DNA of 64,000 nucleotides from Gemmatimonadota bacterium. Lineage in GTDB: Bacteria; Gemmatimonadota; Gemmatimonadetes; Gemmatimonadales; Gemmatimonadaceae. This document shows positions 4,121 through 59,602 of this stretch, piece after piece. Each line of letters begins with the position of its first letter. Positions within the stretch are counted from its first letter, which is position 1. Location of the stretch: contig JACQES010000074.1 of assembly GCA_016200495.1 (NCBI GenBank), forward strand, positions 177-64,176. Reading direction: 5' to 3'. A program made the position numbers and the translations under genes. The notes below the pieces were generated by a model. That model saw only the letters and a program-made list of their open reading frames with translations, was not told the origin of the DNA and made no database searches.

Positions 4121-4129
4121 GGCTCCACG

Positions 4130-4549
4130 ATGCACCGACCGTTCACGCGCGAGTGGGCCGATGCCCTGCGCGACGCCATCAACGCCGACGCCGCGTACGC
4201 GAGCGCGGCCGCCAAGTGGACCTGGCCCGTGGCCCTGGTGCTCGAGGCCAACGAGCCGCTCGGCTATCCCGCGCCCGTGGCGGTGGAGCTCGCGCTCGAA
4301 CGCGGCCGCTGCCATGGCGTGGCGCTGATCGATCCGCCGGCCATCACGGCGCCGTTCACGTTGCGCGCGTCGTACGTGACGTGGAAGAAGGTCGTGACGG
4401 GGTCGCTCGACGCCGTGACCGCGGTGACGATGGGCGAGATCAAGTTCACGGGGGCGCTCACCACGCTCCTGCTGCACGTGAACGCCGCCAAGGCGCTGGT
4501 GGGTGCGGCGCGCCTCGTGCCGACGGCGTTCCCCGACGAGGCCGCGTGA
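4130..4549 (+). CDS. SCP2 (sterol-carrier-protein-2-like) lipid-binding domain protein
   Basis: 139-aa ORF. The sequence ...SYVTWKKVVTGSLDAVTAVTMGEIKFTGALTTLLLHVNAAKAL is the characteristic SCP2 C-terminal pattern. The gene starts 10 nt after the preceding stop. Confidence 0.8.
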   Translation: MHRPFTREWADALRDAINADAAYASAAAKWTWPVALVLEANEPLGYPAPVAVELALERGRCHGVALIDPPAITAPFTLRASYVTWKKVVTGSLDAVTAVTMGEIKFTGALTTLLLHVNAAKALVGAARLVPTAFPDEAA

Positions 4550-4571
4550 GCGCGGCCACCAGGAGCCTGAC

Positions 4572-5981
4572 ATGATCACACTGCGCTTGTTCCGGCCGCA
4601 CGCGCCGTCATCGCCCGTGCATCGGGCGCGACGCGCGCGCGCGATGCGCCGCGCATCCGCGCTCGTGGCGACGACCGTCGCCGCCTGGGGCTCGGCCGCC
4701 GGCGCGCAGGCGGTGACGACGCGCGCCGCCGCGGCAGCGAGCAGCAAGGCGGCGTTCCACGCCGCACGCGTGCTCGATCCCGCCACCGGCACGGTGATGG
4801 CGAACGGCGTGATCCTCGTGGATCACGATACGATCGTGCGCGTCGCGAGCCTGACGGCAGCGGCGGTGCCCAAGGAGTACGGCGCCATGGTGGAGCTGGG
4901 CGACGTGACCGTGCTGCCGGGGCTGATCGACGTGCACACGCACCTCACGTCGTCGCAGGCGTCGTACTACGACGGACTGTTCCGGCGCTCGGTGCTCGAC
5001 GCGGCGGTGCGCGCGCCGGGGAATGCCAAGCGCACGCTCGAAGCCGGGTTCACCACCGTGCGCGACGTCGGGGCGGGCGACTACCTCGACGTGGCGCTCC
5101 GCAACGCGATCAACGCCGGCGACCTGCCGGGTCCGCGCATGTTCGTCGCCACCACCGTGCTCTCGGCCACCGGCGGCCACGGCGACCTGAACGGCTTCTC
5201 GCCGTACCTGCGCATCGAGGGGATGGGCGGCCCGGTGGACGGCATCGAGCCGATCCGGAAGCGCGTACGCACGAACGTGAAGTACGGCGCGGATGTCATC
5301 AAGGTGACGGCCGGCGCGGGCGTGCTCTCCGAGGAAGAGTCGGTGGGTGCGCCGCAGTACACGCAGGCGGAGCTCGACGCGCTGGTGGACGAGGCGCGCA
5401 TGTGGGGGCGCAAGGTGGCCGCGCACGCGCACGGCGGCGAGGCGATCAAGCGCGCGATCCGCGCCGGCGTGGCGAGCGTGGAGCACGCCGGGCTGATCGA
5501 CGACGAGGGGGTCGCGCTCGCGAAGCAGCACGGCACCTACCTCGTGCCCGACGTCTACACCGACGTGTACATCATCGAGCAGGGGCCGGCGATGGGGCTG
5601 CCGGAGAAGATCCTCGACAAGGAACGCCAGCTGCGGAAGAGCCAGGAGCAGAACTGGGGCAAGGCGCGCGCGGCGGGGGTCAAGTTCGCGTTCGGCACCG
5701 ACGCGGGGGTCTATCCGCACGGCGACAACGCGAAGCAGTTCCGCTACCTGGTCGAAGTCGGCTTCCCGCCGCTCATGACCATCCAGATGGCGACCGTGAA
5801 CGCGGCCGACCTGCTCGGCAACGCGAAGGTCGGTCGGCTCACGCCGGGCGCGTACGCGGACTTCATCGCGGTGAAGGGCGACCCGGTGGCGGACGTGAAG
5901 ACGCTCGAGGCGCCTCTGGTCGTGGTGAAGGGAGGCGTGATGGTGAAGGGCGCGGCGGGGGACACGAAGCCCAAGCGGTAG
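4572..5981 (+). CDS. Exported metal-dependent amidohydrolase (imidazolonepropionase / Xaa-Pro dipeptidase-like family)
   Basis: ORF 4503..5981. The ATG at 4572 is preceded by AGGAG (4561-4565). An alternative ATG at 4644 sits directly ahead of the signal peptide MRRASALVATTVAAWGSAAGAQA. The HxH motif (GLIDVHTHL) and KVAAHAHG are present. Confidence 0.88.
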   Translation: MITLRLFRPHAPSSPVHRARRARAMRRASALVATTVAAWGSAAGAQAVTTRAAAAASSKAAFHAARVLDPATGTVMANGVILVDHDTIVRVASLTAAAVPKEYGAMVELGDVTVLPGLIDVHTHLTSSQASYYDGLFRRSVLDAAVRAPGNAKRTLEAGFTTVRDVGAGDYLDVALRNAINAGDLPGPRMFVATTVLSATGGHGDLNGFSPYLRIEGMGGPVDGIEPIRKRVRTNVKYGADVIKVTAGAGVLSEEESVGAPQYTQAELDALVDEARMWGRKVAAHAHGGEAIKRAIRAGVASVEHAGLIDDEGVALAKQHGTYLVPDVYTDVYIIEQGPAMGLPEKILDKERQLRKSQEQNWGKARAAGVKFAFGTDAGVYPHGDNAKQFRYLVEVGFPPLMTIQMATVNAADLLGNAKVGRLTPGAYADFIAVKGDPVADVKTLEAPLVVVKGGVMVKGAAGDTKPKR

Positions 5982-6092
5982 CGGGTGGATTCAGCGGAAG
6001 AGCGCGCGCCGGACGAGGGCGCCCCGGTGGCAAACATTCGGCGCCGAACCAATCAGTACAACTGAGTCAAGCTGTTATCTGACAATGCTTTG

Positions 6093-6135
6093 GGCGTGAC
6101 GTGCGTGGGCCGATGATGGCCCTGTGCGTCACGCC
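6093..6135 (+). promoter_or_regulatory. Two-tier GC-rich hairpin in the leader of the seven-gene operon
   Basis: GGCGTGACG (6093-6101) pairs with CGTCACGCC (6127-6135). Inner GGGCC (6107-6111) pairs with GGCCC (6118-6122), with loop GATGAT. It lies about 110 nt after the amidohydrolase stop and about 70 nt before the GTG at 6208. There is no T-tract. Confidence 0.4.
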
Positions 6136-6137
6136 TA

Positions 6138-6149
6138 CGTCATCTGACG
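6138..6149. promoter_or_regulatory. Inverted repeat CGTCA-TC-TGACG (possible operator)
   Basis: Read directly from the sequence. The same TGACG/CGTCA half-sites also form the outer arms of the adjacent hairpin, giving four half-sites within about 55 bp. Confidence 0.3.
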
Positions 6150-6207
6150 GATAGGACCGCCCTCGGCGGAATGGCACCATGCACGCGACCCCTCACCGGA
6201 GTTGCCC

Positions 6208-7551
6208 GTGCTGCTGCCCCGCCATCGTGCGCTCGACCACCTGCAGTCGCTGTTGCGGGGAGGCGCCCCCGGCCTCCTCGGAGACCGGCTGGAGCCGCGA
6301 CATGACGGCACCGTGCGGCGCATCCCCACCGACCGTGATGCGGTGGACGCGCGCTGGAGCGCGATCGCGCCCGACGGCGCGCCCGACCGCGCGCTGCTCG
6401 ACGAGCGTGCGCGCGCCCTCGCCCCGGCCTTCGCGCGCAACATCGAGAACTACGTCGGCGCGCTCACCGTGCCGGTGGGCGTGGCGGGCCCCGTGCGCGT
6501 CAACGGGTCGCACGCCGCCGGCGACTACGTGGTGCCGCTCGCCACCACCGAGGCCGCGCTCGTCGCGAGCATCAACCGCGGCGCGTCGGTGATCACGGCG
6601 TCGGGCGGGTGCGCGGCGGTGACGACCAACGAACTCGTCTCCCGCGCCCCCGGCTTCGCCTTCGCCACGCTGCGCGATGCGGGCGCCTTCGTGCTCTGGG
6701 TGCTCGACGCGATCCCGCACCTGCGGCACGTGACGGAGTCGACGACGCGCCATGGCCGCCTGGCCGACGTGCGCGTGAGCCTCGAGGGCAACCACGTCTA
6801 CCTCGTGTTCGACTTCCACACCGGCGACGCGAGCGGCCAGAACATGGTCACGATCGCGACGCAGGCGATCTGCGCGTACATCGCCGACGCGAGCCCGGTG
6901 CCGCCGCTGTACGGCTTCCTCGAGGCCAACCACTCGGGCGACAAGAAGGCGAGCGCGCAGAGCTTCACGAGCGGGCGCGGGCGCAGCGTGACGGCCGAGG
7001 TGCACGTGCCGCGCGCGCTCGTGCTGGAACGGCTCCACACGACGCCGGAGATGCTCGCGCGCTACTTCACGATCTCGGCCATCGGTGGCGTGCTGAGCGG
7101 CACGATCGGCGTGCAGGGCCACTACGCGAACGCCCTCGCGGCGCTCTACCTCGCGACGGGCCAGGACGTGGCGTGCGTCGCGGAGTCGGCCGTGGGGGTG
7201 ACGCGGCTCGAGGCGACCGCCGACGGGCTCTACGCGGCGGTGACGCTGCCCAACCTGCTCGTGGGCACGGTGGGCGGCGGCACCGGGCTGCCCGCGCAGC
7301 GCGCCTGCCTCGCGACGATGGGGCTCGCCGGCGAGGGCCACGCGAGCGCGCTGGCGGAGGTGTGCGCCGCGGTGGCGCTCGCGGGCGAACTCTCGATCAC
7401 CGCGGCGCTCTGCGCTGGCGAGTTCGCCACCGCGCATGCGCGCTTCGCGCGCGGGACCCCGGCCGCCGTGCCGACGGCGCCGGTCGTGTTCGCCGGAGCG
7501 GCGCCGTCAGACCCGGTCGCGCTCGCCGAAGCGGAGGCTTCGCATGCGTAG
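6208..7551 (+). CDS. HMG-CoA reductase family protein (class I-like catalytic domain)
   Basis: ORF 6202..7551. GGAG at 6198-6201 favours the GTG at 6208 over the TTG at 6202. Family motifs present: ENYVGALTVPVGVAGPVRVNG, PLATTEAALVASINRG, GDASGQNMVT, SGDKKAS, GTVGGGTGL, and a C-terminal His (EFATAHARF). Confidence 0.9.
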   Translation: MLLPRHRALDHLQSLLRGGAPGLLGDRLEPRHDGTVRRIPTDRDAVDARWSAIAPDGAPDRALLDERARALAPAFARNIENYVGALTVPVGVAGPVRVNGSHAAGDYVVPLATTEAALVASINRGASVITASGGCAAVTTNELVSRAPGFAFATLRDAGAFVLWVLDAIPHLRHVTESTTRHGRLADVRVSLEGNHVYLVFDFHTGDASGQNMVTIATQAICAYIADASPVPPLYGFLEANHSGDKKASAQSFTSGRGRSVTAEVHVPRALVLERLHTTPEMLARYFTISAIGGVLSGTIGVQGHYANALAALYLATGQDVACVAESAVGVTRLEATADGLYAAVTLPNLLVGTVGGGTGLPAQRACLATMGLAGEGHASALAEVCAAVALAGELSITAALCAGEFATAHARFARGTPAAVPTAPVVFAGAAPSDPVALAEAEASHA

Positions 7552-8644
7552 CGACCTCGCGGAACGCCCCGCCTTCCAGTCGGTGCTGCGCTACGCGCAG
7601 TGCTGGGAGGACGCCGACGTGCTGCTCGCCGCGCTCGACATCCAGCCCGGCGATCGCTGCCTCTCGATCGCGAGCGCGGGCGACAACACGCTGTCCATGC
7701 TCGCGTGCCGTCCGGGCAAGGTGATCGCGATCGACCTGAACCCGGTGCAGCTCGCCGCGCTCGAGCTGCGCGTGGCCGCGTACCGCGCGCTCACGCACGC
7801 CGAGCTGCTCGAGCTCGTCGGGTCGCGTCCGAGCGACCGGCGCCGCGCCCTCTACGCGCGCTGCCGCCCGCAGCTCTCCGCCGGCGCGCGCGACTGGTGG
7901 GACGCGCGCCCCGCGCTGGTGCAGCACGGCATCGGCGGCGCCGGCCGGTTCGAGCGCTACCTCGCCCTCTTCCGCCGCTACGCGCTGCCGCTCGTGCACC
8001 GCCGCCGCACGGTGGCCGCGCTGCTCGAGCCGCGCCCGCGCGCCGCGCGCCGCCGGTTCTACGATGACCACTGGGACACGCTCGCCTGGCGCCTCCTCTT
8101 CCGCGCCTTCTTCAGCGAGCCGGTGCTCGGCCGCCTGGGCCGCGATCCGCGCCTCTTCGCCTTCGCGCACGACTCCGTGGCCGAGCACCTGCTCGCGCGC
8201 GCGGAGCATGCGCTGGCCGAGCTCGACCCGTCGGAGAACCCGTACATCGCGTGGATCCTCACGGGGGCGCATGGCGCGACGCTGCCGCACGCGCTGCGCC
8301 CCGAGCACTTCGACGTCATCCGCGCGCACCTCGACCGGCTCGAGTGGCGGTGCGAACCGCTGGAAGCGCTCGACGCCGCCGACCTGGGCGGCCCGCTCGA
8401 CCGCGCCAACCTGAGCGACGTGCTCGAGTACGTCTCGCCCGAGGTCGCGCGCGCGCTCGTCGAGCGGCTCGCCGCGCTGTCGCGCCCGGGCGCCCGGCTC
8501 GCCTACTGGAACATGATCGTGCCGCGGCGCGGCGCCGACCTGGCGCCGAGCGCGGTGCGCACCGTGCCCGGGTGCGGCGCGCGCCTCGCGCGCGACGACA
8601 AGGCCTTCTTCTATCGCGACTTCATCGTCGAGGAGGTCCGGTGA
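7544..8644 (+). CDS. BtaA-like protein (DUF3419; S-adenosylmethionine:diacylglycerol 3-amino-3-carboxypropyl transferase family)
   Basis: This is the 3' part of ORF 7436..8644. The ATG at 7544 follows GGAGG (7533-7537) and overlaps the upstream TAG by 8 nt. The hallmark YAQCWEDADVL motif and IASAGDNTLS are present. Confidence 0.85.
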   Translation: MRSDLAERPAFQSVLRYAQCWEDADVLLAALDIQPGDRCLSIASAGDNTLSMLACRPGKVIAIDLNPVQLAALELRVAAYRALTHAELLELVGSRPSDRRRALYARCRPQLSAGARDWWDARPALVQHGIGGAGRFERYLALFRRYALPLVHRRRTVAALLEPRPRAARRRFYDDHWDTLAWRLLFRAFFSEPVLGRLGRDPRLFAFAHDSVAEHLLARAEHALAELDPSENPYIAWILTGAHGATLPHALRPEHFDVIRAHLDRLEWRCEPLEALDAADLGGPLDRANLSDVLEYVSPEVARALVERLAALSRPGARLAYWNMIVPRRGADLAPSAVRTVPGCGARLARDDKAFFYRDFIVEEVR

Positions 8645-9426
8645 CGCCCGCGATCGCGGGGATGCGCGTGGCGCTCGAGGCGGCCGCGCTGCTCGGCATG
8701 CTGGGCGTGCTGGCCGTCGCGCGCCGGCTCGGGCTGGGCGCGGAGTGGTCGCGCAAGCTCGCGCACGTCGGGCTCGGCGGCGCCGCGCTCGCGTGGCCGC
8801 TGCTGTTCGACGCGGCGTGGCCGGCGGCGGTGGTCGCGGCGCTCACGGTGATCGTGCTCGTCGCGCTGCGCGTGGTGCCGATGGCCGCACGCGCGGCCGG
8901 TGGCGCGGTGTGCGGCGTGTCGCGCCGCACCACGGGGGATCTCTGGTTTCCCGTCGCGGCGGCGAGCCTGTTCGCGCTCACGGGCGGCCATGCGCTCACG
9001 TACGCGGTGCCGGTGGCCACGCTGGCACTGGCCGATGCGGCGGCGGCGCTCGTCGGGCGCCGGTGGGGACGGCACCGGTTCCACGTGGGCGCGGCGCGCA
9101 AGAGCGTCGAGGGCTCGCTCGCCTTCGCGGGGGTCGCGTTCGTGATCGCGCTCGGGGGGCTGTCGCTCGCCCCCGACGGCGCGCTGGGGGTCTCGCGCGA
9201 CGCGACGCTCGCGCTCGGCGCGGCGCTCGCCTACGCCGCGGCCACCACGGTCGCTGAGGCGGTGTCCACGCACGGCCTCGACAACGTCACGGTGCCGTTC
9301 GCCGGCGCGACCGCGATGACGCTGCTGGTGGCGGACCCCGCCGCGGCGACGGTGCTGCTGTCGGCGAGTGCGGCGGCGGTGGCCGCGCTGGCCATCACGC
9401 CGCGCACGGAGGCGCGCGCCCGATGA
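8641..9426 (+). CDS. CTP-dependent prenol kinase / cytidylyltransferase family membrane protein (phytol kinase, dolichol kinase, CdsA superfamily)
   Basis: This is the 3' part of ORF 8251..9426. The GTG at 8641 overlaps the upstream TGA (GTGA). The protein is polytopic and hydrophobic. The motif GRRWGRHRF..ARKSVEGSLAFAG is typical of this superfamily. Confidence 0.8.
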   Translation: MTPAIAGMRVALEAAALLGMLGVLAVARRLGLGAEWSRKLAHVGLGGAALAWPLLFDAAWPAAVVAALTVIVLVALRVVPMAARAAGGAVCGVSRRTTGDLWFPVAAASLFALTGGHALTYAVPVATLALADAAAALVGRRWGRHRFHVGAARKSVEGSLAFAGVAFVIALGGLSLAPDGALGVSRDATLALGAALAYAAATTVAEAVSTHGLDNVTVPFAGATAMTLLVADPAAATVLLSASAAAVAALAITPRTEARAR

Positions 9427-10853
9427 ACTGCGCCGATCGCCTCCTCGCGCCCGTGGCGGACACGCCGACCCGCCTGGCGCTCTGGACGCCGCGCGACGGC
9501 GTCGTGACGTACGCCGAGTTCGCGCGACTGGCCGCCCAGGCGCAGGCGGTCGCGCGCGACGAGCGGTGGCGGCCGGCGGCGCCGGTGCTGCTGCTCGCGC
9601 AGCCGGACGCCGCGGTGCTCGCCACGGTGGTGGGACTGATGGGCCTCGGCATTCCCGTGCTCTTCGTCGAGCCGTGGCTCCCGCTGGCCGAGATCGCGCA
9701 CGTGCTGCGCCTGGCGCCCCCTCAGGGGTTCATCGCGGGGCGGCTCGGACAGCTGTGGGGGCTGCGCATGCGCGCGGTGCGCGCGATTCCCTCGTGGGTG
9801 CCGCTCGCGCGCGTGGCGCGCCGCCCCGCGCCCTCGCCGCTCGTGATGGACGACCTGGCGGGCGAGCACGTGGCCACGATCGCGTTCTCGTCCGGCACGA
9901 CGGGCCGCCCGAAGGGGCTCGTGCGCACGCACGCGCACATGCGGGCGCTGCACGACGCGCTGGGCGGCACGCCAGATCGCCTGGTCGCGGCGGGGCCCGA
10001 CCTCGCGATCTTCCCCAACTTCGCCCTGCTGCACATCGGCAGCGGTCGTGGTGCGCTGCTCGTGCCGCCGGAGCGTCGCGCGCGCACGCTGCGCCAGGTG
10101 GCGGCGCTGCCGCGCGCACTCAGGCCGACCTCGTGCACGTGCGGGCCGGCCGTGCTCGCGGCCCTCACCGCGCAGGCCGCCGACGGCGCATTCGCGACGC
10201 TGCGTGCCCTGCACGTGGGCGGCGCCTCGACCGACTGCCTCACGTTCGAGCGCGCCTTCGCGCGCTGGCCCGACGCGCACGTGACGCACCTCTACGGCGG
10301 CAGCGAGGTCGAACCCGCCGCGCTCGCCGACGCGCGCGAGGCGGTGCGCCTGAGCCGAGCGCGCGGCTACATCCAGACGCTCGCGCTGGGCGCCCCGCAC
10401 GAAGCGCTCCGCACGCGCCTCTCCGACGATGGATTGTGGGTGAGCGGCCCGACGGTGGCGCCGGCCGGCATCGGCGAGGCGGCGGAGCTCGCGCGCACGC
10501 TCACGACTGACGCCGAGGGTCGCACCTGGCGCTGCACCGGCGACCGGATCGCGGCCGACGCGGACGGCTGGTGGTTCGCGGGGCGCGCGTCGCAGCCGGC
10601 CGACGAGTTCGCGCTCGAGCAACGGATCTACGCGGCGCTCGGTACGACGGCCTGCTTCGTCGCGCGCGACGCGCGCGGGCGGCTCGGCCTGTACGGCGAG
10701 GGCATCATTCGGGCGGTCCGGCTCGAGGGCGACGACTTCGCACGGGCGTTTCCCGAGGTGGACGTGGTCCGCGACGTGCGCATCGCGCGCGACCGGCGGC
10801 ATGGCGCGCGCATCGACCGGTCGCGGTCGCTCGCGCTGGCGGAGGCGGCATGA
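9423..10853 (+). CDS. Adenylate-forming enzyme (AMP-dependent synthetase/ligase, ANL superfamily)
   Basis: 476-aa ORF. The ATG overlaps the upstream stop (ATGA). The core motif IAFSSGTTGRPKGLVRTH is present, as are YGGSEVE and a C-terminal GDR...DGWWFAGR pattern. Confidence 0.88.
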   Translation: MNCADRLLAPVADTPTRLALWTPRDGVVTYAEFARLAAQAQAVARDERWRPAAPVLLLAQPDAAVLATVVGLMGLGIPVLFVEPWLPLAEIAHVLRLAPPQGFIAGRLGQLWGLRMRAVRAIPSWVPLARVARRPAPSPLVMDDLAGEHVATIAFSSGTTGRPKGLVRTHAHMRALHDALGGTPDRLVAAGPDLAIFPNFALLHIGSGRGALLVPPERRARTLRQVAALPRALRPTSCTCGPAVLAALTAQAADGAFATLRALHVGGASTDCLTFERAFARWPDAHVTHLYGGSEVEPAALADAREAVRLSRARGYIQTLALGAPHEALRTRLSDDGLWVSGPTVAPAGIGEAAELARTLTTDAEGRTWRCTGDRIAADADGWWFAGRASQPADEFALEQRIYAALGTTACFVARDARGRLGLYGEGIIRAVRLEGDDFARAFPEVDVVRDVRIARDRRHGARIDRSRSLALAEAA

Positions 10854-11887
10854 GCGCGCCGCGGGTGATGCGCGTCGAGACGGACGCGTGGCGGGGAGCG
10901 GACGCCCGACGCGGTGCCGCCGCGCGCGACGTGGCCGCCGCCCGGCCGTCCGGCGCGTCGCCGTGGCGCACCTTCCTGCGCGAGCGCGCGCCGCTGCCGC
11001 TGATGCTCGCGCTTGGCGCGGGACAGGCGCTCTCGTCGTGGGCGCTGTCGCGCGGGCCCGTGCGCGTGGCGCCGCTCATTGTCGGCACGCTCGGCATCGC
11101 CGGCCTGCTCGTCCTGCTGCGCCTCATGGACGAGGTGAAGGACGTGGCCAAGGATCGCGTCGCGCACCCGGAGCGTCCGCTGCCGCGCGGGCTGGTGCGC
11201 GAGTCGATCGTGCGCGCGGTGATCGGCCGGGCGTGGTGGATGGCGTGCGCGGTTTCGCTGGTGGCGTTGGCGGGGCCGATGGTGCGTGCCGTGCTGGGCG
11301 CCACGGATTCGAACGTCAGTCCGGTCGCGGCCATCCTGTCCGCCCTGCGCGCGACGCCCGCCGCAGTGGCCGCCCTCGCCGCCCTCGCGTGGGCGTGGCT
11401 CATGTACCGCGAGTTCGGTGCGCCGCGGTGGCTGGCGCGCAGCGCGTTCGCGTACGGCATGGTGCACCAGCTGGTGCTCGTGCCGATGTACGCCTTCACC
11501 CTGCTTGCGTGGACGCCGGACGCGGCCGCGCTCGCGCGCGGTGCGTGGTGGACGGCCGGCGGACTCGGCGCCGGCTTCGCGTTCGAGATCGCGCGCAAGC
11601 TCGATCCGGGGGCGCTCCCGGTGCTCGGCACGTACCTCGTGCGGCATGGTCGCGTTCCGACCTTCGCGGCGCTCGGCGTGGTGCTCGTGCTGGTCGTGAC
11701 GACCGCGAGCGGCGCCGGCATCGCGCCGTTCGTGTGGCCCGTCAGCGCGCTTGCCACGCTCGCGCTCATCATCACGCTCGTCCGTCCCGCCGCGCACGCG
11801 CACCTCGCGCGTGCCGCGGGCGCCCTCGTGGTCACTCAACTGCTCGCGCCGCTCCTCGCGCGGGCGTGGGAGGTGCTGGTCGCATGA
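10850..11887 (+). CDS. UbiA-superfamily prenyl/alkyl transferase-like membrane protein
   Basis: This is the 3' part of ORF 10571..11887. The ATG at 10850 overlaps the upstream TGA (ATGA). The first Asp-rich motif LMDEVKDVAKDRVAHPERPLPRG is present. The protein has about 8 hydrophobic helices. The second Asp-rich motif is degenerate (FEIARKLD). Confidence 0.78.
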   Translation: MSAPRVMRVETDAWRGADARRGAAARDVAAARPSGASPWRTFLRERAPLPLMLALGAGQALSSWALSRGPVRVAPLIVGTLGIAGLLVLLRLMDEVKDVAKDRVAHPERPLPRGLVRESIVRAVIGRAWWMACAVSLVALAGPMVRAVLGATDSNVSPVAAILSALRATPAAVAALAALAWAWLMYREFGAPRWLARSAFAYGMVHQLVLVPMYAFTLLAWTPDAAALARGAWWTAGGLGAGFAFEIARKLDPGALPVLGTYLVRHGRVPTFAALGVVLVLVVTTASGAGIAPFVWPVSALATLALIITLVRPAAHAHLARAAGALVVTQLLAPLLARAWEVLVA

Positions 11888-14643
11888 CGACGTTCATTCC
11901 CGAAGCCGAACCGGCGGTGCTCGACGTGCGCGCCGGCGCCGAGCAGGACCGTCGCCGTACCGCCCTCGACGCCGAATGCGGCGGCAAGGCGGCCAACCTC
12001 GCGCGCCTCGATGCGCTTGGCATGGCCGTGCCGCCCTGGTTCTGCGTGGCCGCCACGCACTTCGACCAGGTGCGCAACGCGCTCGGGCTCGAGGCGCTCG
12101 CACGGCGCGGGGCGTCGGATGCGGCCGTCGAGGCCGACGTGCGCGAGCGCTTGAGGGCCGCGTGTTTCCCGGATTCGCTGCGTGCGGAGATCGCGGAGCA
12201 GCTTCGGCAGCTCGGCCTCGCCGATGCGCTCGTCGCCGTCCGGTCGAGTGGCCTCGAGGAAGACGGCGCCACGCATTCGTTCGCCGGACAGTTCGAGAGC
12301 GTGCTGGGGGTGCGTGGCGTGGACGCCGTGTGCGAGGCCGTGACGCGATGCTGGGCGTCCGCGTACGGCGCGCGCCATCGCGCCTACCGCCGGCACGCGG
12401 GGCTCGAGGGCGCCGCGCCGCGCATGGCGGTGGTCATCCAGCAGCTCGTGGCGGCCGACTGCGCCGGCGTCGCGTTCTCGCGCAATCCGCTCGCGCCGCT
12501 TGACGTCGCGCACGCGATCGTCGAGAGCGTGTGGGGGCTGGGTGAGGGGCTGGTGAGCGGCGCGGTGGACGCCGACCGCTTCGTCGTGCATCGCACGAGC
12601 TACGAGGTGCAGCGCACGGTCGCCGACAAGGCCTCGGCGTTCGTGACCGCGCCGGATGGCGGCGCTCGCGCGGTGCCGCTCGACCTCGCGCGCCTCGAGC
12701 GCGCGTCGCTCACCGACGCGCAGGCGCGGTCCGTCGCCGCGCTCGCGCTCCGGCTCGAGCACGCTTTCGGCGCGCCGCAGGACTGCGAGTGGGCCTTTGC
12801 CGACGGGCGCCTCTGGCTCCTGCAGGCGCGGCCCATCACGGCCCTGCCGCCGGCCGCGCTGTTCGACCCCGCCATCGGCGGCGCGATGCCCGTCATCTGG
12901 GACAACGCCAACATCATCGAGAGCTACGCCGGCGTCACGACGCCGCTCACCTTCAGCCACGTGAGCCGCTGCTACCGCGCGGTGTACGTGCAGTTCTGCC
13001 GCGTGATGGGAGTGAGCGAGGCGGTCATCGCCGCCAACGAGCCGATGTTCCGCAACATGCTCGGCCTCGTGCGCGGGCGCGTGTACTACAACCTCGTCAA
13101 CTGGTACCGCCTGCTCGCGCTGCTCCCGGGAGTCGCCCATAGCCGCGGCTTCATGGAAACGATGATGGGGGTGCGGCAGGGCCTCACCGCCGAGCTCGCG
13201 CGCCTGTTCGACGACGCGCTCGCCGCCCCGCCGCTGCCGTGGTGGCGGCGCGCGACGGTCGCGGTGGTCACCGCGTGGCGCGTGCTGCGCGCCCGCGCGC
13301 TCAACCGCGCCTTCCTCGCGCGCATGGCGCACGTCGTGCGCCCGCTGCAGGACGCCGACCTGGCGTCGCGTCCGCTGTCCGACCTGCTCGCCCTCTACGA
13401 CCGCCTCGACCGCGAGATCCTGCAGCGCTGGCAGGCGCCGATCGTCACCGATTTCCGCTGCCTGCTCGCCTTCGGGCTGCTCAAGTCGCTCACGGTGCGC
13501 TGGCTCGACGCGGCCGATGCCCCGTCGCTGCAGAACGACCTCCTTTGCGGCGACGGCTCGCTCTTGAGCGTCGAGCCGACGCGTCGCCTGCTCGCCATCG
13601 CCCACGGCATCGAGCGCGGCGACGCCGGCTTCCGGCAGCGCGTCCTCGCCGCCACCCCGGCGCAGTTCCAGCGGATGCTCAAGCGCCGGGAGGCGCCCGC
13701 CACGAGTGACGCGTTCGCGCGCTTCATCGCCGACTTCGGCTTCCGCTGTGCCGACGAGCTCAAGCTCGAGTCGCCCGACCTGCACGACGACCCGACCTTC
13801 GCGCTCGCCACGATCCAGCAGTATGTGCGCGACGGCGCGCCCGCGCGCACCGGCGACGGCGCCGCCGAGGCCCGGATCCGCGCCGCGGCCGAGTCGCGCG
13901 TGCGCGCCACGCTGCGCGGTCCCCGCCGGTGGGTCTATCGCGCCGTGCTCGCGTGGGCGCGCCGGGCCGTGCGCGACCGCGAGCAGCTGCGCTTCGAGCG
14001 CACGCGCGTCTTCGGCGTCTCGCGGCGCATCTTCCGCGCGATCGGGCTCCGGCTGTCGCAGCTGGGCGCCATCGCGCAGCCCGACGACGTCTTCTACCTC
14101 GGCATCGAGGAGCTCTTCGCCTGGCACGAGGGGCGCGCGCTCACGGCCGACCTGCGCCCGACGATCGCCGCGCGTCGCGCCGAGTTCGAGGGCTATCGCC
14201 GCACCGCCGCACCGCCCGATCGCCTCCTCACGCGCGGGCCCGCGAGCGGCATGATGGCGCATCCCGCCGTGCTCGCCGCCGGCGACTTGCTCGTGCGCGA
14301 GGCGGCTGCAGCAAGCGCGGACGCCTCGCGCCTCACCGGCACGCCGTGCTCGCCCGGCGTCGTCGAGGGGGTCGTGCGCGTCGCGCGCACGATCGCCGAG
14401 GCGCAGGGGATCGCCGGCGAGATCCTCGTCACCGAGCGCACCGACCCGGGCTGGGTGCCGCTCTTCCCGAGCTGCGCGGGCCTCGTCGTCGAGCGCGGCA
14501 GCCTGCTGTCGCACTCGGCCGTCGTCGCCCGCGAACTCGGCCTGCCCACCATCGTCGGCGTGACCGGCCGGCCACTCGAGCGGCTACGCACCGGTCAGCG
14601 CATCCGCATGGACGCCACGCGCGGGGAGATCACCATCCTATGA
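11884..14643 (+). CDS. PEP-utilising phosphotransferase with rifampicin-phosphotransferase-like architecture (PPDK_N ATP-grasp, about 450-aa helical middle domain, swivel phospho-His domain)
   Basis: This is the 3' part of ORF 10801..14643. The ATG at 11884 overlaps the upstream TGA (ATGA). N-terminal motifs: GGKAANLARL, VAVRSSGLEEDG..SFAGQFES, MAVVIQQLV, DCEWAF.DGRLWLLQARPIT. C-terminal motif: ILVTERTDPGWVPLFPSCAGLVVERGSLLSHSAVVARELGLPTIVG, which contains the catalytic His. No PEP-binding TIM-barrel domain is present. Confidence 0.88.
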   Translation: MTTFIPEAEPAVLDVRAGAEQDRRRTALDAECGGKAANLARLDALGMAVPPWFCVAATHFDQVRNALGLEALARRGASDAAVEADVRERLRAACFPDSLRAEIAEQLRQLGLADALVAVRSSGLEEDGATHSFAGQFESVLGVRGVDAVCEAVTRCWASAYGARHRAYRRHAGLEGAAPRMAVVIQQLVAADCAGVAFSRNPLAPLDVAHAIVESVWGLGEGLVSGAVDADRFVVHRTSYEVQRTVADKASAFVTAPDGGARAVPLDLARLERASLTDAQARSVAALALRLEHAFGAPQDCEWAFADGRLWLLQARPITALPPAALFDPAIGGAMPVIWDNANIIESYAGVTTPLTFSHVSRCYRAVYVQFCRVMGVSEAVIAANEPMFRNMLGLVRGRVYYNLVNWYRLLALLPGVAHSRGFMETMMGVRQGLTAELARLFDDALAAPPLPWWRRATVAVVTAWRVLRARALNRAFLARMAHVVRPLQDADLASRPLSDLLALYDRLDREILQRWQAPIVTDFRCLLAFGLLKSLTVRWLDAADAPSLQNDLLCGDGSLLSVEPTRRLLAIAHGIERGDAGFRQRVLAATPAQFQRMLKRREAPATSDAFARFIADFGFRCADELKLESPDLHDDPTFALATIQQYVRDGAPARTGDGAAEARIRAAAESRVRATLRGPRRWVYRAVLAWARRAVRDREQLRFERTRVFGVSRRIFRAIGLRLSQLGAIAQPDDVFYLGIEELFAWHEGRALTADLRPTIAARRAEFEGYRRTAAPPDRLLTRGPASGMMAHPAVLAAGDLLVREAAAASADASRLTGTPCSPGVVEGVVRVARTIAEAQGIAGEILVTERTDPGWVPLFPSCAGLVVERGSLLSHSAVVARELGLPTIVGVTGRPLERLRTGQRIRMDATRGEITIL

Positions 14644-15743
14644 CGCTCACCAACACCTTCACGGTCGTCGGCGCCAGCACCCTCGATCCCTACGCGCGTG
14701 CGGCGTTCACGCAGCGCCTCGTGGCCCTGGGGGGCGTGCTCCGGCGCAGCGCGACGGCGGCCTTCGCCCCGTCGCCCGAGTACGCGCAGCGCGTCGTCGC
14801 CCTCGCCGGGCGCCGGCAGGCGGAGCTGCTCGGTGTGCTCGACGGCGAGAGCGTCATCGCGCGCGGGCTCGTGGCCGTTTCGACGAGCGATCCCTCGACC
14901 GCCACGCTTGGCCTCTACGAAGTGGTCGCGGGCGAGCGCGCCCCGTTGGCCGCGCAACTGCTCGCGGAGGCGGCGCGCGCGTGGGCCGCGCAGCGCGGCT
15001 GCACGCGCCTCGTGGCGCCCGTGGACCTCAACAGCTGGTTCCAGTACCGCACGCTCACGCCGCCCACCGGCGCCGCGGCAGCCGACGGGCCGTTCTTCTG
15101 GGAGCCGGTCACGCCACCCGCGCACACGGCGCTGCTCGAGGCCACCGGCTTCGCCGTCACCGAGCGCTACCACAGCCTCGTGACCGCGTACGATCCGCGC
15201 GCGCTGGCGCACGGACTCGTGATGCACGCGGACGCGACCGAACGCGTGCGCGCCGCGCGCGTGACGCTGTCCGCGGTCGGAAGCGCGCCGAGCGACGCGC
15301 TCCTGGACGAGATCGGCCGCCTGTCGAACATCGCGTTCGCGCAGAACCCGCTGTTCGAACCGCTCCCGCTCGATCTCTTCCGCGCGCAGTACCGCCAGAT
15401 GGCCGCGCGTGTCGACCACGGGCCGTCGCAGCTCGCGCGCGATGCGCACGGGCACCTGGTCGGCTTCCTCTTCGCATTCGTGGATGGCCCGACCGCCTGC
15501 ATCAAGACTGCGGCCGTCGCCGCCGACGTGCGAAACGCCGGCCTCATGTCGGCCATGCACCATCGCGCGATCACCAACCTCATCGGCCGGCCGCTTACCA
15601 CCGTGGCGTGGGCGCCGTTCCTCGAGGGCAACTGGACCGGCCGCCTCGCGCGCGACTACGTGCGCGGCCCCGAGGTCCTGCGCCAGCGCGACTACGCGCT
15701 CTGGTCGAGCCCATGCGACGCGCAGGCGCTGGCCGGATGGTGA
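14640..15743 (+). CDS. GNAT-like acyltransferase-fold protein (tentative); last gene of the operon
   Basis: This is the 3' part of ORF 13929..15743. The ATG at 14640 overlaps the upstream TGA (ATGA). Composition is normal. HLVGFLFAFVDG...AAVAADVRNAGLMSAMHHRAI resembles the GNAT acyl-CoA-binding core. The functional call needs a profile search. Confidence 0.7.
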   Translation: MTLTNTFTVVGASTLDPYARAAFTQRLVALGGVLRRSATAAFAPSPEYAQRVVALAGRRQAELLGVLDGESVIARGLVAVSTSDPSTATLGLYEVVAGERAPLAAQLLAEAARAWAAQRGCTRLVAPVDLNSWFQYRTLTPPTGAAAADGPFFWEPVTPPAHTALLEATGFAVTERYHSLVTAYDPRALAHGLVMHADATERVRAARVTLSAVGSAPSDALLDEIGRLSNIAFAQNPLFEPLPLDLFRAQYRQMAARVDHGPSQLARDAHGHLVGFLFAFVDGPTACIKTAAVAADVRNAGLMSAMHHRAITNLIGRPLTTVAWAPFLEGNWTGRLARDYVRGPEVLRQRDYALWSSPCDAQALAGW

Positions 15744-15879
15744 GTCGCCACGCACCGCCACCCTGACTGGGCGCCTTTTGGCGCCACTGCCGAGCGATCC
15801 GGGCTGATGCGCGCTGCCCGGTCGCGCGGTCCCCACCCCCATGACCCGCCGCGGCGGGTCCGCGCAGAAGGAGCAGACC

Positions 15880-17163
15880 ATGACACCCCACATCACCCGC
15901 GCCCTGCTGTCGTCCCTCATCGTGCTCGCGGCCTGCGCCGACCGGGACGTCGCGAGTCCCGTGAGCCCGGCGCCGGGCACCACCATGTCGGAGTCCGAGG
16001 GGCGCGGCGCGTTCCAGCGCTACGTCGCCATCGGCACCAGCGTCTCCGAGGGCTGGGCCAGCGACGGCCTCACCGGCGCGTCGCAGCGCGACTCGTGGCC
16101 GCGCCAGCTCGCGCGCCTCGCGCATCGCGACATCACGCAGCCGTACGTGCAGGATCCCGGTTGCCGTCCGCCCCTCCTCGCGCCGCTCGCCGCCGGCGCG
16201 CGACTCGGCGGGTACCCCGCGGCGCCGACCCCCTTCTTCTGTGCGCCGCTCGAGGCCGACGTCTCGCTGCCGACGCAGAACCTCGCGATCGTCTCGTCCA
16301 CCACGCTCGAGGCGCTCACCACGACGCCCGAGGGGATGACCGATCCCGAGCGCACAGGCATCTTCGCGCGCACGCTGCCCCCGGGCATGACGCAGGTGAG
16401 CGCGATGATGGCGCAGAACCCCAAGTTCGTGTCGGTGGAGTTCGGCGCGAACGAGATCCTCGCCGTGCACTTCGGCTTCTACGCGCCCGGGGTGAACGTC
16501 TTCCCGGTCGCCGCGTGGAAGCCCCTCTACCGGCAGTTGATCGACTCCGTGGCCAAGGCCACGCGGCAGGGCGTCGTCGTCGGGCTGATTGACGACATGC
16601 GCAACTTCCCGGCCTTCCGGAGCGGTCCGGAACTCTGGGCCGAGCGCGCGACGTTCGCGTCGTTCAACGTCGTGCTCTCGCCCGACTGCGCCACCACCAC
16701 CAACTGGTTCTTCGTCCCGTCGGTGGTCCCGATCGCCATCGGCACGGGCGCGTACTATGCGTCGCACGGGTTCGGCCCGTACACCTACACCTGCGCCGAC
16801 CAGGGCGGCCTGGTCGAGGACGGCGTGCTGTCGGCGGCCGACGTCGCCGCCACCAACGCGCAGTTGGCCGAGATGAACACGGAAATCGAGGCGCAGGCGC
16901 GCCGCATCGGCTTCGCGTACTTCAAGCTGTCCGCGCTCTACGAGCGCCCGGACGTGCGTGTCGATTTCTCGGTGGGCCGCCAGCTCACGACCAGCGAGCC
17001 ATACGGGCCGTACTTCAGCCTCGACGGTCTGCACCCGAGCGCGCTGGGCCACGCCGTGCTCGCCGCGGCCGCCGCCCGGGCGATCAACCGGCGGTACGAC
17101 TTCGACATCCCCGTGCCCGCCGACAGCTGGCACGGCGTCGTGGCCGCGCGGCACGACCGCTGA
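15880..17163 (+). CDS. Exported SGNH/GDSL-family hydrolase lipoprotein
   Basis: ORF 15841..17163. The ATG at 15880 follows GAAGGAG (15867-15873). A lipobox is present (LIVLAAC). VAIGTSVSEGW is a GDS-like block, and a C-terminal DGLHPS is present. Confidence 0.82.
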   Translation: MTPHITRALLSSLIVLAACADRDVASPVSPAPGTTMSESEGRGAFQRYVAIGTSVSEGWASDGLTGASQRDSWPRQLARLAHRDITQPYVQDPGCRPPLLAPLAAGARLGGYPAAPTPFFCAPLEADVSLPTQNLAIVSSTTLEALTTTPEGMTDPERTGIFARTLPPGMTQVSAMMAQNPKFVSVEFGANEILAVHFGFYAPGVNVFPVAAWKPLYRQLIDSVAKATRQGVVVGLIDDMRNFPAFRSGPELWAERATFASFNVVLSPDCATTTNWFFVPSVVPIAIGTGAYYASHGFGPYTYTCADQGGLVEDGVLSAADVAATNAQLAEMNTEIEAQARRIGFAYFKLSALYERPDVRVDFSVGRQLTTSEPYGPYFSLDGLHPSALGHAVLAAAAARAINRRYDFDIPVPADSWHGVVAARHDR

Positions 17164-17290
17164 GCCGGTGCCTCCGGCGTGCCACGCTGTCCGGTGGCAC
17201 GCCGGATGGCCGATGTCCGCTGTTCCACTCTCGCCCTCGGCGCGCACCCGTCGCAACTTGAAGCATCCCGCCCGCCGAGGACGTGCGTCC

Positions 17291-18175
17291 ATGCCGCTCA
17301 GCAGCACGCAGGCCCAGTCGAAGTACTTCCAGCTCTACGCCAACTCCAAGCGGCTCGCCTGGGATCCGGCCACGGTGGACCTGCGTGCCGACGTGGCGCA
17401 GTGGCAGCGGATCAAGGCCGACCACGCCGACATCGACGCCGCCACGCAGATCCTCCAGCTCGTCGCGCTCTTCCACGCCGGCGAGGAGTCGGTCACGACC
17501 ACGCTCGCCCCGTACCTCGGCGCCGCCGCGCGCCTCGGACTCGGGCTCGACGTCGAGATGTTCCTCACGTCGCAGGTGTACGAGGAGGCCAAGCACTTCG
17601 AGTTCTTCGCGCGCTACGTGCGCGAGGTGCTCGGACCGGATGCGGACGCGCTCGACCGCTTCCTTCCCGGGCCACCGCAGCAGGTGCTCATCGACGACCT
17701 GGCCGACGTCGCCGACCGGCTGCGCCGGGAGAACGATCCCGTCGCGCTCCGGACCACCTTCGTGGAGGCCGTGACGCACTACATGGGAATCGTCGAGGCG
17801 ATGCTGGCGCGCACCGGCTACCGCGGCGTGCACGACGCGCTCACGGCGCGCGGCTGGCTGCCGGGGCTGCAGGAGGGGTTCCGCCTGATCCGCCGCGACG
17901 AGGGCCGCCACGTCGCGTTCGGCATCCACTGCATCGCCGACGCGTGCGCCGCCGACGTCGCCATGCGCGAGGTCGTGCAGGCGACGTTCGAGCGCCACCT
18001 CCCCAACGTCCTCGGCACCGTCGCGAGCTTCCAGTACCCGCACCCGCTCGTGGACGTGGCGCTGCTGCAGTCGTATGCGCTCGGCGCCTACCAGCAGTTC
18101 ATGGCGGCGGCGGGGCTCAACGACGACGCCGACGCGGCGCGCGCGCTGGCGACGGAACTCGCGGACGCGAGCTGA
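17291..18175 (+). CDS. Ferritin-like diiron protein of the ribonucleotide reductase R2 / R2-like ligand-binding oxidase family
   Basis: This is the 3' part of ORF 16958..18175, with the ATG at 17291. Two ExxH metal motifs are present (VYEEAKHFEFF and IRRDEGRHVAFG), plus upstream acidic ligands (HAGEES). Confidence 0.82.
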   Translation: MPLSSTQAQSKYFQLYANSKRLAWDPATVDLRADVAQWQRIKADHADIDAATQILQLVALFHAGEESVTTTLAPYLGAAARLGLGLDVEMFLTSQVYEEAKHFEFFARYVREVLGPDADALDRFLPGPPQQVLIDDLADVADRLRRENDPVALRTTFVEAVTHYMGIVEAMLARTGYRGVHDALTARGWLPGLQEGFRLIRRDEGRHVAFGIHCIADACAADVAMREVVQATFERHLPNVLGTVASFQYPHPLVDVALLQSYALGAYQQFMAAAGLNDDADAARALATELADAS

Positions 18176-23276: not shown

Positions 23277-23457
23277 GACGGAACTCCCTGGTTGTGGGTC
23301 GCCAAGGAGACGTCGGCGGGGCGCGAACTTGCACACCGGGCCCTCAACTGTTTGCGCCACAGGGAGTTGGCAGGGCGCCGTGTCGTTGTCACACCGATGG
23401 CGGGGTGCACGCGTCAGGCGTATGATGACTCGCCTTCAGCCCCGGGGAGTCGCCGAG

Positions 23458-57439: not shown

Positions 57440-59598
<2,159 letters not shown>

Positions 59599-59602
<4 letters not shown>

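Follow-up and report, generated by a model that had tools for sequence, protein, structure and literature searches.

A conserved seven-gene bacterial operon that very likely makes an undescribed fatty-alcohol-derived amphiphile

Introduction

A contig of a Gemmatimonadota bacterium (JACQES010000074.1, assembly GCA_016200495.1) carries seven consecutive genes from well-known enzyme families, and the question raised by this locus is whether these genes belong together and what their products make. We analysed a stretch of 64,000 nucleotides (nt) of this contig, called the window throughout. The genes are labelled g1 to g7 in the order of the window; they are seven plus-strand reading frames between positions 6208 and 15743. 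A first-pass annotation, made from the sequence alone, had read them as one translationally coupled unit and as a candidate pathway for an undescribed lipid or a prenylated amino-metabolite. Our analysis leads to the conclusion that g1 to g7 are known enzyme families in a new combination, an uncharacterised lipid biosynthetic operon. We consider it very likely that they constitute a single conserved operon whose product is a fatty-alcohol-derived amphiphile not described so far, and this amphiphile is very probably a membrane or envelope lipid built from fatty acids.

Results

Conservation of the gene cluster

The seven genes of the window are the following.

g1, 6208..7551, plus strand: predicted FcrA-type fatty acyl-CoA reductase with the fold of class-I 3-hydroxy-3-methylglutaryl-CoA (HMG-CoA) reductase (HMGR)
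g2, 7544..8644, plus strand: predicted DUF3419 (BtaA-superfamily) transferase dependent on S-adenosylmethionine (SAM)
g3, 8641..9426, plus strand: polytopic membrane protein, short form; presumed lipid-alcohol kinase dependent on cytidine triphosphate (CTP)
g4, 9423..10853, plus strand: predicted ANL adenylating enzyme, acyl-CoA ligase-like
g5, 10850..11887, plus strand: predicted UbiA-superfamily intramembrane transferase of a divergent type A subfamily
g6, 11884..14643, plus strand: predicted RPH/PigC-type ATP-dependent phosphotransferase
g7, 14640..15743, plus strand: predicted tandem-GNAT acyltransferase; presumed acyl-CoA-dependent N-acyltransferase

We scanned one genome per GTDB species with peptides of g2 and obtained 503 relatives, of which the best 80 loci were analysed. 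Among these best 80 of 503 the g2 proteins share 53-65% identity across phyla. The carriers, assigned to phyla by the titles of their records, are Gemmatimonadota, Planctomycetota, Cyanobacteria, Chloroflexota, Verrucomicrobiota, Acidobacteriota, Geobacteraceae, Desulfobulbus, Burkholderiales, Gammaproteobacteria, Rhodothermales and other Bacteroidota, Trueperaceae, Nitrospiraceae, Rokubacteria and a metagenome-assembled genome (MAG) of Coriobacteriia. The gene set is present in at least a dozen phyla. When all open reading frames (ORFs) of the 80 loci were clustered all-against-all, exactly seven families turned out to be conserved, namely those of g1 to g7; the remainder were shadow ORFs or lineage-specific genes. 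At 37 loci at least 6 kb of sequence is available on either side of the g2 homologue. All seven families are found together in 25 of these well-flanked loci, and at least five families in 33.

The genes occur in two orders. Type B, the dominant one, runs g1-g5-g6-g2-g3-g7-g4 or is a cyclic permutation of this series. The rarer order (type A), which is that of the window, is g1-g2-g3-g4-g5-g6-g7; it is found in several Gemmatimonadota and, by way of g6 homologues, also in marine, Bacteroidota-like, Oligoflexia and Bdellovibrionaceae contigs. In either order g5 is next to g6 and g2 next to g3, and the type A proteins form coherent subfamilies as judged from the identity of g6, the second motif of g5 and the A10 residue of g4. 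Because the same seven families are syntenic across phyla and in both gene orders, the comparison indicates that the seven genes form one conserved functional unit. The single unit of the first-pass annotation, which had named synteny in related genomes as a check, is thereby borne out.

The families g1 and g3 co-vary. Both are present in 28 of the well-flanked loci and both are missing from four, g3 occurs alone in four and g1 alone in one. The loci without g1 are those of Chloroflexota as well as L081, L082, L083, L089 and L090 (L numbers designate single loci). The cluster would accordingly be composed of a core of g2, g4, g5, g6 and g7 and an accessory pair, g1 and g3, which is predicted to supply an alcohol. 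The DUF3419 subfamily of g2 also occurs alone: the cyanobacterial loci L024, L027 and L037 have g2 homologues of about 55% identity without the remaining cluster within 10 kb.

Two cultured bacteria have a complete type B set. In Roseinatronobacter sp. S2 it is located on the plasmid NZ_CP121116.1 (L091/L093). The g1 homologue crosses the origin of this circular record and is hence absent from the plasmid gene table; genes for a WavE-family protein, a glycosyltransferase of family GT2 and a phosphatase of the haloacid dehalogenase (HAD) type lie just upstream on the same strand. In Brevibacillus laterosporus B9, with a guanine-plus-cytosine (GC) content of 41%, the set is followed by a gene for a cytochrome P450.

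In the window all seven frames are open from g1 through g7, and the six overlaps reported in the first-pass annotation were all found at the same positions and with the same strings. The junction of g1 and g2 is an 8-nt overlap (7544-7551, ATGCGTAG), that of g2 and g3 is GTGA (8641-8644), and the remaining four are ATGA (9423-9426, 10850-10853, 11884-11887 and 14640-14643). A Shine-Dalgarno-like GGAG or GGAGG lies 5-12 nt 5' of six of the seven starts, g4 being the exception, and the starts of g2 and g3 are backed by homologue alignments which begin at residues 1-3. The NCBI gene calls (locus tags HY275_) for g6 (919 amino acids (aa), named 'phosphoenolpyruvate synthase') and g7 (367 aa, 'hypothetical protein') agree with ours in length and sequence. 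The GC content of the window is 72-77%, and long spurious ORFs are frequent. In the 41% GC locus of Brevibacillus the matching seven ORFs stand alone, and because they are clean there, g1 to g7 are not artefacts of high GC content. Relatives likewise have overlapping junctions: L084 shows overlaps of 4-8 nt at each of the eight junctions between g1 and the gene for an MMPL transporter, and L088 shows overlaps of 4-32 nt at six of its seven junctions, with a gap at g3/g4. Elsewhere in the window there are two further 4-nt overlaps, and overlaps alone are common in compact operons. For this reason the case for one unit leans more on synteny than on overlaps. We infer that g1 to g7 are translationally coupled and co-transcribed.

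The reductase g1

The g1 protein matches the Pfam family HMG-CoA_red (E = 1.6e-104), and its best match in the PDB is the archaeal HMGR 6HR7 (5.6e-82). It reaches, however, only 314 bits with the HMGR equivalog model TIGR00533, whose cutoff is 441.8 bits. A fatty acyl-CoA reductase derived from class-I HMGR, termed FcrA, has been described from Natronomonas pharaonis and Ca. Promineifilum breve; its substrate is fatty acyl-CoA, and HMG-CoA is not reduced (Grossi et al. 2025, PMC11948995). FcrA differs from HMGR in that Ser684 is replaced by Glu, the Lys which forms a salt bridge to HMG by small residues and Leu862 by a bulky residue (PMC11948995). The salt-bridge residue is printed as 'Lys795' in PMC11948995 and is taken here as Lys735 of human HMGR.

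We aligned 47 sequences of the g1 family, including that of the window, with human, Arabidopsis and archaeal HMGR and use the human numbering. The catalytic residues Glu559, Lys691, Asp767 and His866 are kept in all 47 members. Position 684, a Ser in HMGR, is Glu in 46 sequences, among them the window protein, and Asp in one. Position 735, a Lys in HMGR, is never Lys in the family; it is Met in 37 members, Val in seven and Ile, Ala or Thr in three, the window protein having Ile. Position 862, Leu in HMGR, is Phe in 47 of 47. Because the catalytic tetrad is kept and all three FcrA-discriminating positions are changed, g1 is called FcrA here. It is well supported by these residues that g1 is a fatty acyl-CoA reductase of this type, which would carry out a four-electron reduction with 2 NADPH to a fatty alcohol.

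A canonical HMGR with a mevalonate-derived product was rejected, as Ser684 and Lys735 are both changed and the score is below the TIGR00533 cutoff. The label 'HMGR-like', in the sense of an HMG-CoA-type enzyme, had to be given up in view of the substitutions at 684, 735 and 862. If g1 is a fatty acyl-CoA reductase, the product is to be seen as fatty-acid derived and not as a prenylated amino-metabolite, so that this second option of the first-pass annotation falls. Its proposed conversion of an acid via the CoA thioester to a primary alcohol, on the other hand, agrees with the FcrA signature of g1.

The transferase g2 and the membrane protein g3

The g2 protein matches Pfam DUF3419 (2e-67) over profile positions 5-331 of 385, and its SAM motif LSIASAGDN is kept in 79 of 81 homologues. 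DUF3419/BtaA-type genes of rhizobia (Rhizobium, Sinorhizobium, Shinella) align with residues 1 to about 146 of g2, that is with the N-terminal 37% or so, at 30-40% identity. As to a BtaB-type N-methyltransferase, no methyltransferase family is conserved across the 80 loci. Of the earlier name 'BtaA-like' the membership in DUF3419 holds and BtaA orthology does not; by its sequence g2 is a distinct DUF3419 subfamily. Synthesis of diacylglyceryl trimethylhomoserine (DGTS) was rejected, since a BtaB is missing and orthology of g2 to BtaA does not hold. Presumably g2 moves the 3-amino-3-carboxypropyl group of SAM.

The g3 protein corresponds to the N-terminal 255 or so residues of a membrane protein which has about 450 aa in most relatives; short forms are also found in L020, L025, L072 and L089. 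The family has the conserved motifs SRK..H, D..AA..G, K(S/T).EGS and G.DN, of which we take the first three to be those of dolichol/phytol kinases and CdsA. Neither a Pfam nor an NCBIfam match was obtained with the window protein, none of 37 members had a Pfam or NCBIfam match that would place it in the polyprenol/phytol kinase-CdsA (CTP_transf_1) superfamily, and a profile search against the PDB gave nothing useful. When g3 was compared with Escherichia coli CdsA by hhalign, the signature segment D..A..G...G......K..EG was all that aligned, with a probability of 2.5%. Precomputed annotations list a 'faint' CTP_transf_1 match for one homologue and weak DUF92 matches on homologues. In long forms of g3 a weak match to DUF92, the family of VTE6, falls into the extra C-terminal domain (11 of 37). 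What had been called 'prenol-kinase-like' thus has the motifs, and is now placed as the N-terminal half of a protein of about 450 aa without a profile match.

The adenylating enzyme g4 and the UbiA-type protein g5

For g4 the Pfam match is AMP-binding (1e-24). Among the NCBIfam models, all of which it matches below the cutoff, it is nearest to PRK09274 (2.7e-27), named 'fatty acid CoA ligase family'; TIGR01733 is matched with 7e-22. The motifs SSGTTGRPK, YGGSE and TGD (A3, A5 and A7) are present. The matches in the PDB are weak and are to stand-alone adenylation enzymes. These findings support the view that g4 adenylates a carboxylic acid and makes a CoA thioester.

The g5 protein of the window has no Pfam match and a weak NCBIfam match to PRK13592. 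Homologues from the same alignment exceed the threshold of Pfam UbiA (PF01040), for example in L040 (39.9 bits), L035 (54.4 bits) and L092 (56.8 bits), and the family profile weakly matches chlorophyll synthase 9SAU (5e-4) and digeranylgeranylglyceryl phosphate (DGGGP) synthase 6M31. The first Asp-rich motif, DEVKDVAKD, has the pattern (D/N)xxxDxxxD and is kept in all 54 family members; RPLPRG, which fits the pattern RP(L/V)PxG, is kept in 53 of them. The second motif is RKLDPGALPVLGTY in the window, RKLDPxAHPxLxTY in type A and RKIRxPxDEExGVxTY in type B, and the DEExG of type B is found in 36 of the 54 members. The assignment of g5 to the intramembrane transferases of the UbiA type is supported, and from its family a diphosphate-activated donor would be expected. 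The usual donors of UbiA enzymes are allylic prenyl diphosphates or phosphoribosyl diphosphate.

The phosphotransferase g6 and the acyltransferase g7

The g6 protein matches Pfam PPDK_N (5.9e-71) and PEP-utilizers (1.8e-20); a TIM-barrel domain which binds phosphoenolpyruvate (PEP) or pyruvate was not detected in the Pfam scan. Its domains are an ATP-grasp PPDK_N domain, a central Rph-type domain (precomputed PF27448 Rph_4th) and a swivelling phospho-His domain, whose motif GSLLSHSAV is kept in 55 of 57 homologues. The score with NF004881 is 864.5 bits against a cutoff of 883, the models of RedH, PigC and Rph are also matched, and the best match in the PDB is the rifampin phosphotransferase of Listeria, 5FBS (2.9e-64). 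The type A members of the g6 family share 50-65% identity with one another and about 40% with those of type B. The assignment of g6 as an ATP-dependent phosphotransferase of the RPH/PigC type with a phospho-His swivel is supported by this architecture. A rifamycin-resistance determinant was rejected for g6, which is far below the cutoffs of the Rph equivalogs (NF041857, 338.8 of 999 bits; NF000283, 238 of 1700 bits).

With g7 weak Pfam matches to Acetyltransf_1 and Acetyltransf_6 were obtained, and a profile search against the PDB gave nothing useful. An AlphaFold2 model built on an alignment of 110 sequences has a predicted local distance difference test (pLDDT) of 94.6 and a predicted template modelling score (pTM) of 0.91; it replaces an earlier model from four sequences (pLDDT 59.7). 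In a Foldseek search the model finds the tandem-GNAT protein 2WPW (5e-14), then MshD, Eis, the His N-acyltransferase 9EMP and the aminoacyl-tRNA-dependent Sbb17, all these neighbours with template modelling (TM) scores of about 0.4-0.55. According to the model g7 is two GNAT folds in one chain, so that the former 'GNAT-like' is retained and refined to a tandem GNAT. The family consensus has a loop R-G-x-G-L-S, and a loose pattern of it matches 33 of 54 members. By exhaustive phmmer search the family comprises 1008 clusters (50% identity) at E<=1e-3. Word-indexed searches with the single sequence or the alignment returned 2-4 matches; Ala/Arg-rich words probably saturate their prefilter.

In summary, the family guesses of the first-pass annotation proved right for all seven genes at the superfamily level, as judged by the Pfam/NCBIfam, PDB profile and Foldseek searches.

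Accessory genes and variants of the cluster

The closest type A relatives of the window locus, L006, L014 and L084, continue the cluster with genes for a P450 and an MMPL transporter. An MMPL gene also continues the cluster in L088, follows g3 in L085 and L086, precedes g2 in L081 and lies inside the type B cluster in L056. L083 has genes for an SRPBCC (Polyketide_cyc2) protein and an ABC exporter, L090 for a MacB-type ABC exporter and a LolA-like protein. The P450 gene adjoins g7 in L006, L014, L069 and L084, and natural g7-P450 fusion proteins exist (P0036, 826 aa; P0038, 921 aa). None of these accessory genes, P450 and MMPL included, and no second copies of the cluster genes were found in the 64-kb window. 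We take the product to be a lipid because two of the enzymes are polytopic membrane proteins and because genes for MMPL and ABC exporters and for LolA-like, SRPBCC and P450 proteins accompany the cluster in relatives.

At four Verrucomicrobial loci (L035, positions 856-13651, and L073, L054 and L041) g1 and g3 are replaced by three other genes. One of them codes for an 840-aa fusion of a class-III aminotransferase and a PigE/TamH-like acyl-thioester reductase, the reductase domain of which is homologous to long-chain acyl-ACP (acyl carrier protein) reductase and PigE. The others code for a second, PPDK-like paralogue of g6 and for a SnoaL-like membrane protein. By its domains the fusion would yield a fatty amine where FcrA yields a fatty alcohol. 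Because an amine-forming fusion replaces g1 and g3 together, the view that the alcohol made by g1 is an intermediate on which g3 acts gains support.

The cluster at L040, a locus of a Geobacteraceae MAG, lies between a phospholipase D (PLD)-like gene of the cardiolipin/phosphatidylserine-synthase type and a gene for a glycosyltransferase similar to monogalactosyldiacylglycerol (MGDG) synthase. These lipid-related flank genes, at 3484-4971 and 15206-16357, are not conserved across loci.

Flanks of the operon in the window

Two features border the seven genes.

Upstream gap, 5982..6207, no strand: 226 nt, intergenic, of lower GC content; candidate promoter/operator region
Hairpin GGCGCC-TTTT-GGCGCC, 15770..15785, plus strand: 27 nt past the g7 stop

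The upstream gap contains a perfect 9-nt inverted repeat, GGCGTGACG (6093-6101) and CGTCACGCC (6127-6135), which could be an operator or an RNA hairpin; the gap gave no Rfam match and no match to the sigma-70 consensus. The hairpin behind g7 may mark the end of the transcription unit; it has no T-tail and was not called by a terminator scan.

Downstream of g7 and on the same strand lie an ORF for a GDSL-like lipase/acylhydrolase (15841-17163) and one for a ferritin-like protein similar to the ribonucleotide reductase small chain (16958-18175, 9e-13). They sit where the closest relatives have P450 and MMPL, and this neighbourhood is not conserved elsewhere. Apparently unrelated genes of the window code for a VIT-VWA protein (21021-23360), a dehydrogenase dependent on pyrroloquinoline quinone (PQQ) with a cytochrome c domain (29781-31781) and a DUF3417/glycogen-phosphorylase-like protein (57407-59602).

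Discussion

A proposed pathway

We suggest the following course of synthesis. Initially g4 would turn a fatty acid into acyl-CoA, which g1 would reduce to the fatty alcohol. The alcohol would then be phosphorylated in the membrane by g3, and a second phosphorylation could be the task either of g6 or of the DUF92-like domain at the C-terminus of long g3 forms. The lipid phosphate or diphosphate would be joined to an O-nucleophile by g5. To a hydroxyl group g2 would add the SAM-derived 3-amino-3-carboxypropyl (homoserine) group, and the resulting amine would be N-acylated by g7 with acyl-CoA from g4. In the relatives, oxidation by P450 and export through MMPL-type transporters of the resistance-nodulation-division (RND) class or ABC transporters might follow. 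The activation of the acid by g4 and its reduction to the fatty alcohol by g1 are predicted steps which we regard as well supported, because the family signatures and the biochemical precedent of FcrA agree. The wiring of the later steps of g3, g5, g2 and g7 is inferred from family chemistry and gene neighbourhood. Taken as a whole and with the proposed wiring, this explanation seems to us evenly poised between right and wrong; the specific order of the steps is rather unlikely to be the true one.

Several observations weigh against this pathway. To our knowledge, saturated alkyl diphosphates are not established as donors of UbiA enzymes. In the second motif of g5 the window protein and all seven type A proteins examined have RKLD(P/A)xA(H/L)P with a single Asp. 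The A10 motif of g4, which has Lys in type B (RHNAKIDY), has Arg in the window and the other type A proteins (RHGARIDR). The kinase role of g3 is presumed from motifs and stays below family thresholds, as the hhalign value illustrates, and the g3 of the window is without the C-terminal domain of its closest relatives. g6 adjoins g5 also at loci that lack g1 and g3, and it therefore probably does not act on the product of this pair. g2 could be a methyltransferase instead of an aminocarboxypropyl transferase, and the fold of g7 is common to aminoacyl-tRNA-dependent transferases such as its neighbour Sbb17. Finally, the window operon is without the P450 and MMPL genes of its closest relatives.

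Other explanations

Some of these points are better accommodated if the alkyl phosphate made by g1 and g3 is the acceptor and not the donor of g5, with g6 activating a head-group precursor and g2 and g7/g4 decorating the head group, so that an alkyl-phospho-X lipid results. The adjacency of g5 and g6 is universal, even without g1 and g3, and fits a g6 which supplies a polar donor; no non-allylic alkyl diphosphate is needed; and the UbiA superfamily does include an enzyme with a lipid phosphate as acceptor, decaprenyl-phosphate phosphoribosyltransferase. The g5 profile is, however, closest to chlorophyll and DGGGP synthase, weak as these matches are, and not to the phosphoribosyltransferase branch, and we know of no PPDK-like enzyme that makes a diphosphate donor. 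The sequences do not decide between the roles of donor and acceptor, and we hold this alternative to be quite unlikely. Equally improbable in our view is that the fatty alcohol is the direct acceptor of g2 and that the O-alkyl-homoserine ether is N-acylated by g7/g4. This would give a two-tailed, phosphorus-free aminolipid, with g6 as a PigC/TamQ-like, ATP-dependent condensing enzyme and not as a kinase whose phosphate stays on the product, and with g5 adding a prenyl group. BtaA chemistry acts on a primary lipid hydroxyl, g1 and g2 lie side by side in the type A order, g6 is matched by the models of PigC and RedH, and the Verrucomicrobial variant has a tambjamine-like trio of ANL, TamH/PigE-like reductase-aminotransferase and PigC-like enzymes. 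Yet g2 is far from the rhizobial BtaA-type genes, and g3 would be left without a role.

The cluster might also make a specialised secondary metabolite, such as a signal, a surfactant or an antibiotic-like lipopeptidoid, and not a structural membrane lipid. Its occurrence within phyla is patchy, it is plasmid-borne in Roseinatronobacter, its GC content in Brevibacillus is slightly above that of the flanks, the P450 tailoring gene is variably present and the relatives of g6 include the natural-product enzymes PigC and RedH. Conservation of the core across at least a dozen phyla, with g1 and g2 at 50-65% identity, the recurrence of MMPL, LolA-like and MacB-type genes for envelope lipid transport and the lack of genes for nonribosomal peptide synthetases, polyketide synthases or other scaffold enzymes make this decidedly improbable. 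Far less probable still is that g1 is a true HMGR, whose mevalonate would be activated by g4 and moved by g7 in the manner of SidI/SidF, which serve the anhydromevalonyl route of fungi, or would feed isoprenoids to g5. The strong match to HMG-CoA_red and the intact tetrad would fit, as would the absence of g1 from Chloroflexota loci, since Chloroflexota have their own mevalonate pathway. But neither of the two residues which bind the distal HMG carboxylate is kept in any of the 47 members and Phe stands in place of Leu862, exactly as in FcrA, which does not reduce HMG-CoA; g1 is below the NCBIfam equivalog cutoff, and HMG-CoA synthase, mevalonate kinase and decarboxylase are missing from the cluster in the 80 loci; the signature residues already largely refute this explanation. 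That the genes are unrelated neighbours with incidental overlaps, for example a rifamycin-resistance phosphotransferase beside lipid genes, is hardly conceivable. It is true that the best solved relative of g6 is rifampin phosphotransferase, that the Joint Genome Institute (JGI) names some homologues so and that 4-nt overlaps are common in compact genomes. The conservation of the set, with seven families syntenic across phyla and two gene orders, refutes this explanation, and g6 has 339 bits compared with an Rph equivalog cutoff of 999.

Significance of the operon

We return to the fatty-alcohol-derived amphiphile as the product. It has been an old puzzle that bacteria have class-I HMGR genes without a mevalonate pathway; such genes make fatty alcohols, and many bacterial FcrA genes are not linked to wax-ester synthesis (PMC11948995). 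That paper makes no mention of the g1-g7 gene neighbourhood. The operon puts such FcrA enzymes into a definite and conserved genetic setting and predicts a lipid that known pathways do not explain. Some of the lipids that have been reported without identification from carriers of the set, such as Gemmatimonadota, Planctomycetota, Verrucomicrobiota, Acidobacteriota, Chloroflexota and Cyanobacteria, could be this product. The lipid might be of use as a biomarker in the environment, and it would add to the known chemistry of the UbiA, DUF3419 and RPH-type families. The two cultured carriers, Roseinatronobacter sp. S2 and B. laterosporus B9, make the question experimentally tractable.

Going further, we tentatively propose a new class of bacterial lipids in at least a dozen phyla, some of them abundant in soil and water, with an ether- or phosphate-linked alkyl base derived from the fatty alcohol and an N-acylated, SAM-derived aminocarboxypropyl head group, brought to the envelope by MMPL or ABC transporters. 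The cluster would then show the main physiological role of bacterial FcrA beyond wax esters, and g5 a UbiA enzyme acting on a non-isoprenoid alkyl. This wider proposal is possible but less likely than not.

Comparison with known systems

In the full-text literature accessible without subscription no description of the g1-g7 cluster was found, in line with the first-pass annotation, which knew of no characterised pathway with these genes. The lipocone paper (PMC12419801), which was found for UbiA, HMGR and GNAT, describes other neighbourhoods. The ebo operon, the genes for archaeal-type ether lipids and the tocopherol genes differ in gene content.

With FcrA, g1 has the fold, the catalytic tetrad and the three discriminating substitutions in common, and it is likewise paired with an acyl-activating ANL enzyme; a Lad or ACP extension is absent from g1. 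The FadD-FcrA-WS/DGAT route to wax esters and the FcrA routes to ether lipids via AGPS or PlsC were rejected, as no WS/DGAT, AGPS or PlsC-like gene is conserved among the 80 loci. DGTS synthesis by BtaA and BtaB shares with g2 the Pfam family DUF3419 and the SAM-binding motif, but a conserved BtaB is missing from the g1-g7 set and the rhizobial BtaA-type genes match g2 N-terminally only. In its domain architecture and catalytic His g6 resembles RPH and the condensing enzymes PigC, RedH and TamQ. It is far below the equivalog cutoffs of RPH, PigC and RedH, however, and the cluster has no pyrrole genes; a prodiginine or tambjamine cluster is not the identity of g1-g7.

As in the synthesis of ornithine lipids (OlsB/OlsA) and N-acyl amino-acid lipids, a protein of the GNAT fold, here g7, is predicted to N-acylate an amino-acid-like head group. 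In contrast to OlsB, g7 consists of two GNAT folds, and the searches run detected no relation between the two sequences; the acyl donor probably comes from a dedicated ANL enzyme of the cluster. RND lipid exporters of the MmpL/HpnN type have their counterpart in the MMPL genes in or beside the cluster of the relatives, whereas the window operon has none nearby.

The salvage of phytol in plants and cyanobacteria, the nearest parallel to the part from g3 to g5, proceeds via the phytol kinase VTE5 and the phytyl-phosphate kinase VTE6, a DUF92 protein, to VTE2 or ChlG. It differs from the proposed pathway in that FcrA would deliver a fatty alcohol in place of an isoprenoid, no pathway for an aromatic or tetrapyrrole acceptor is found in the cluster and the likeness of g3 lies below family thresholds. 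Nevertheless, g3 has dolichol/phytol-kinase-like motifs, most homologues of g3 carry a DUF92-like domain in addition, and the profile of g5 is nearest to chlorophyll synthase and DGGGP synthase. The logic of both systems would be alike, as a lipid alcohol is converted to the monophosphate and the diphosphate and is finally transferred by an enzyme of the UbiA family.

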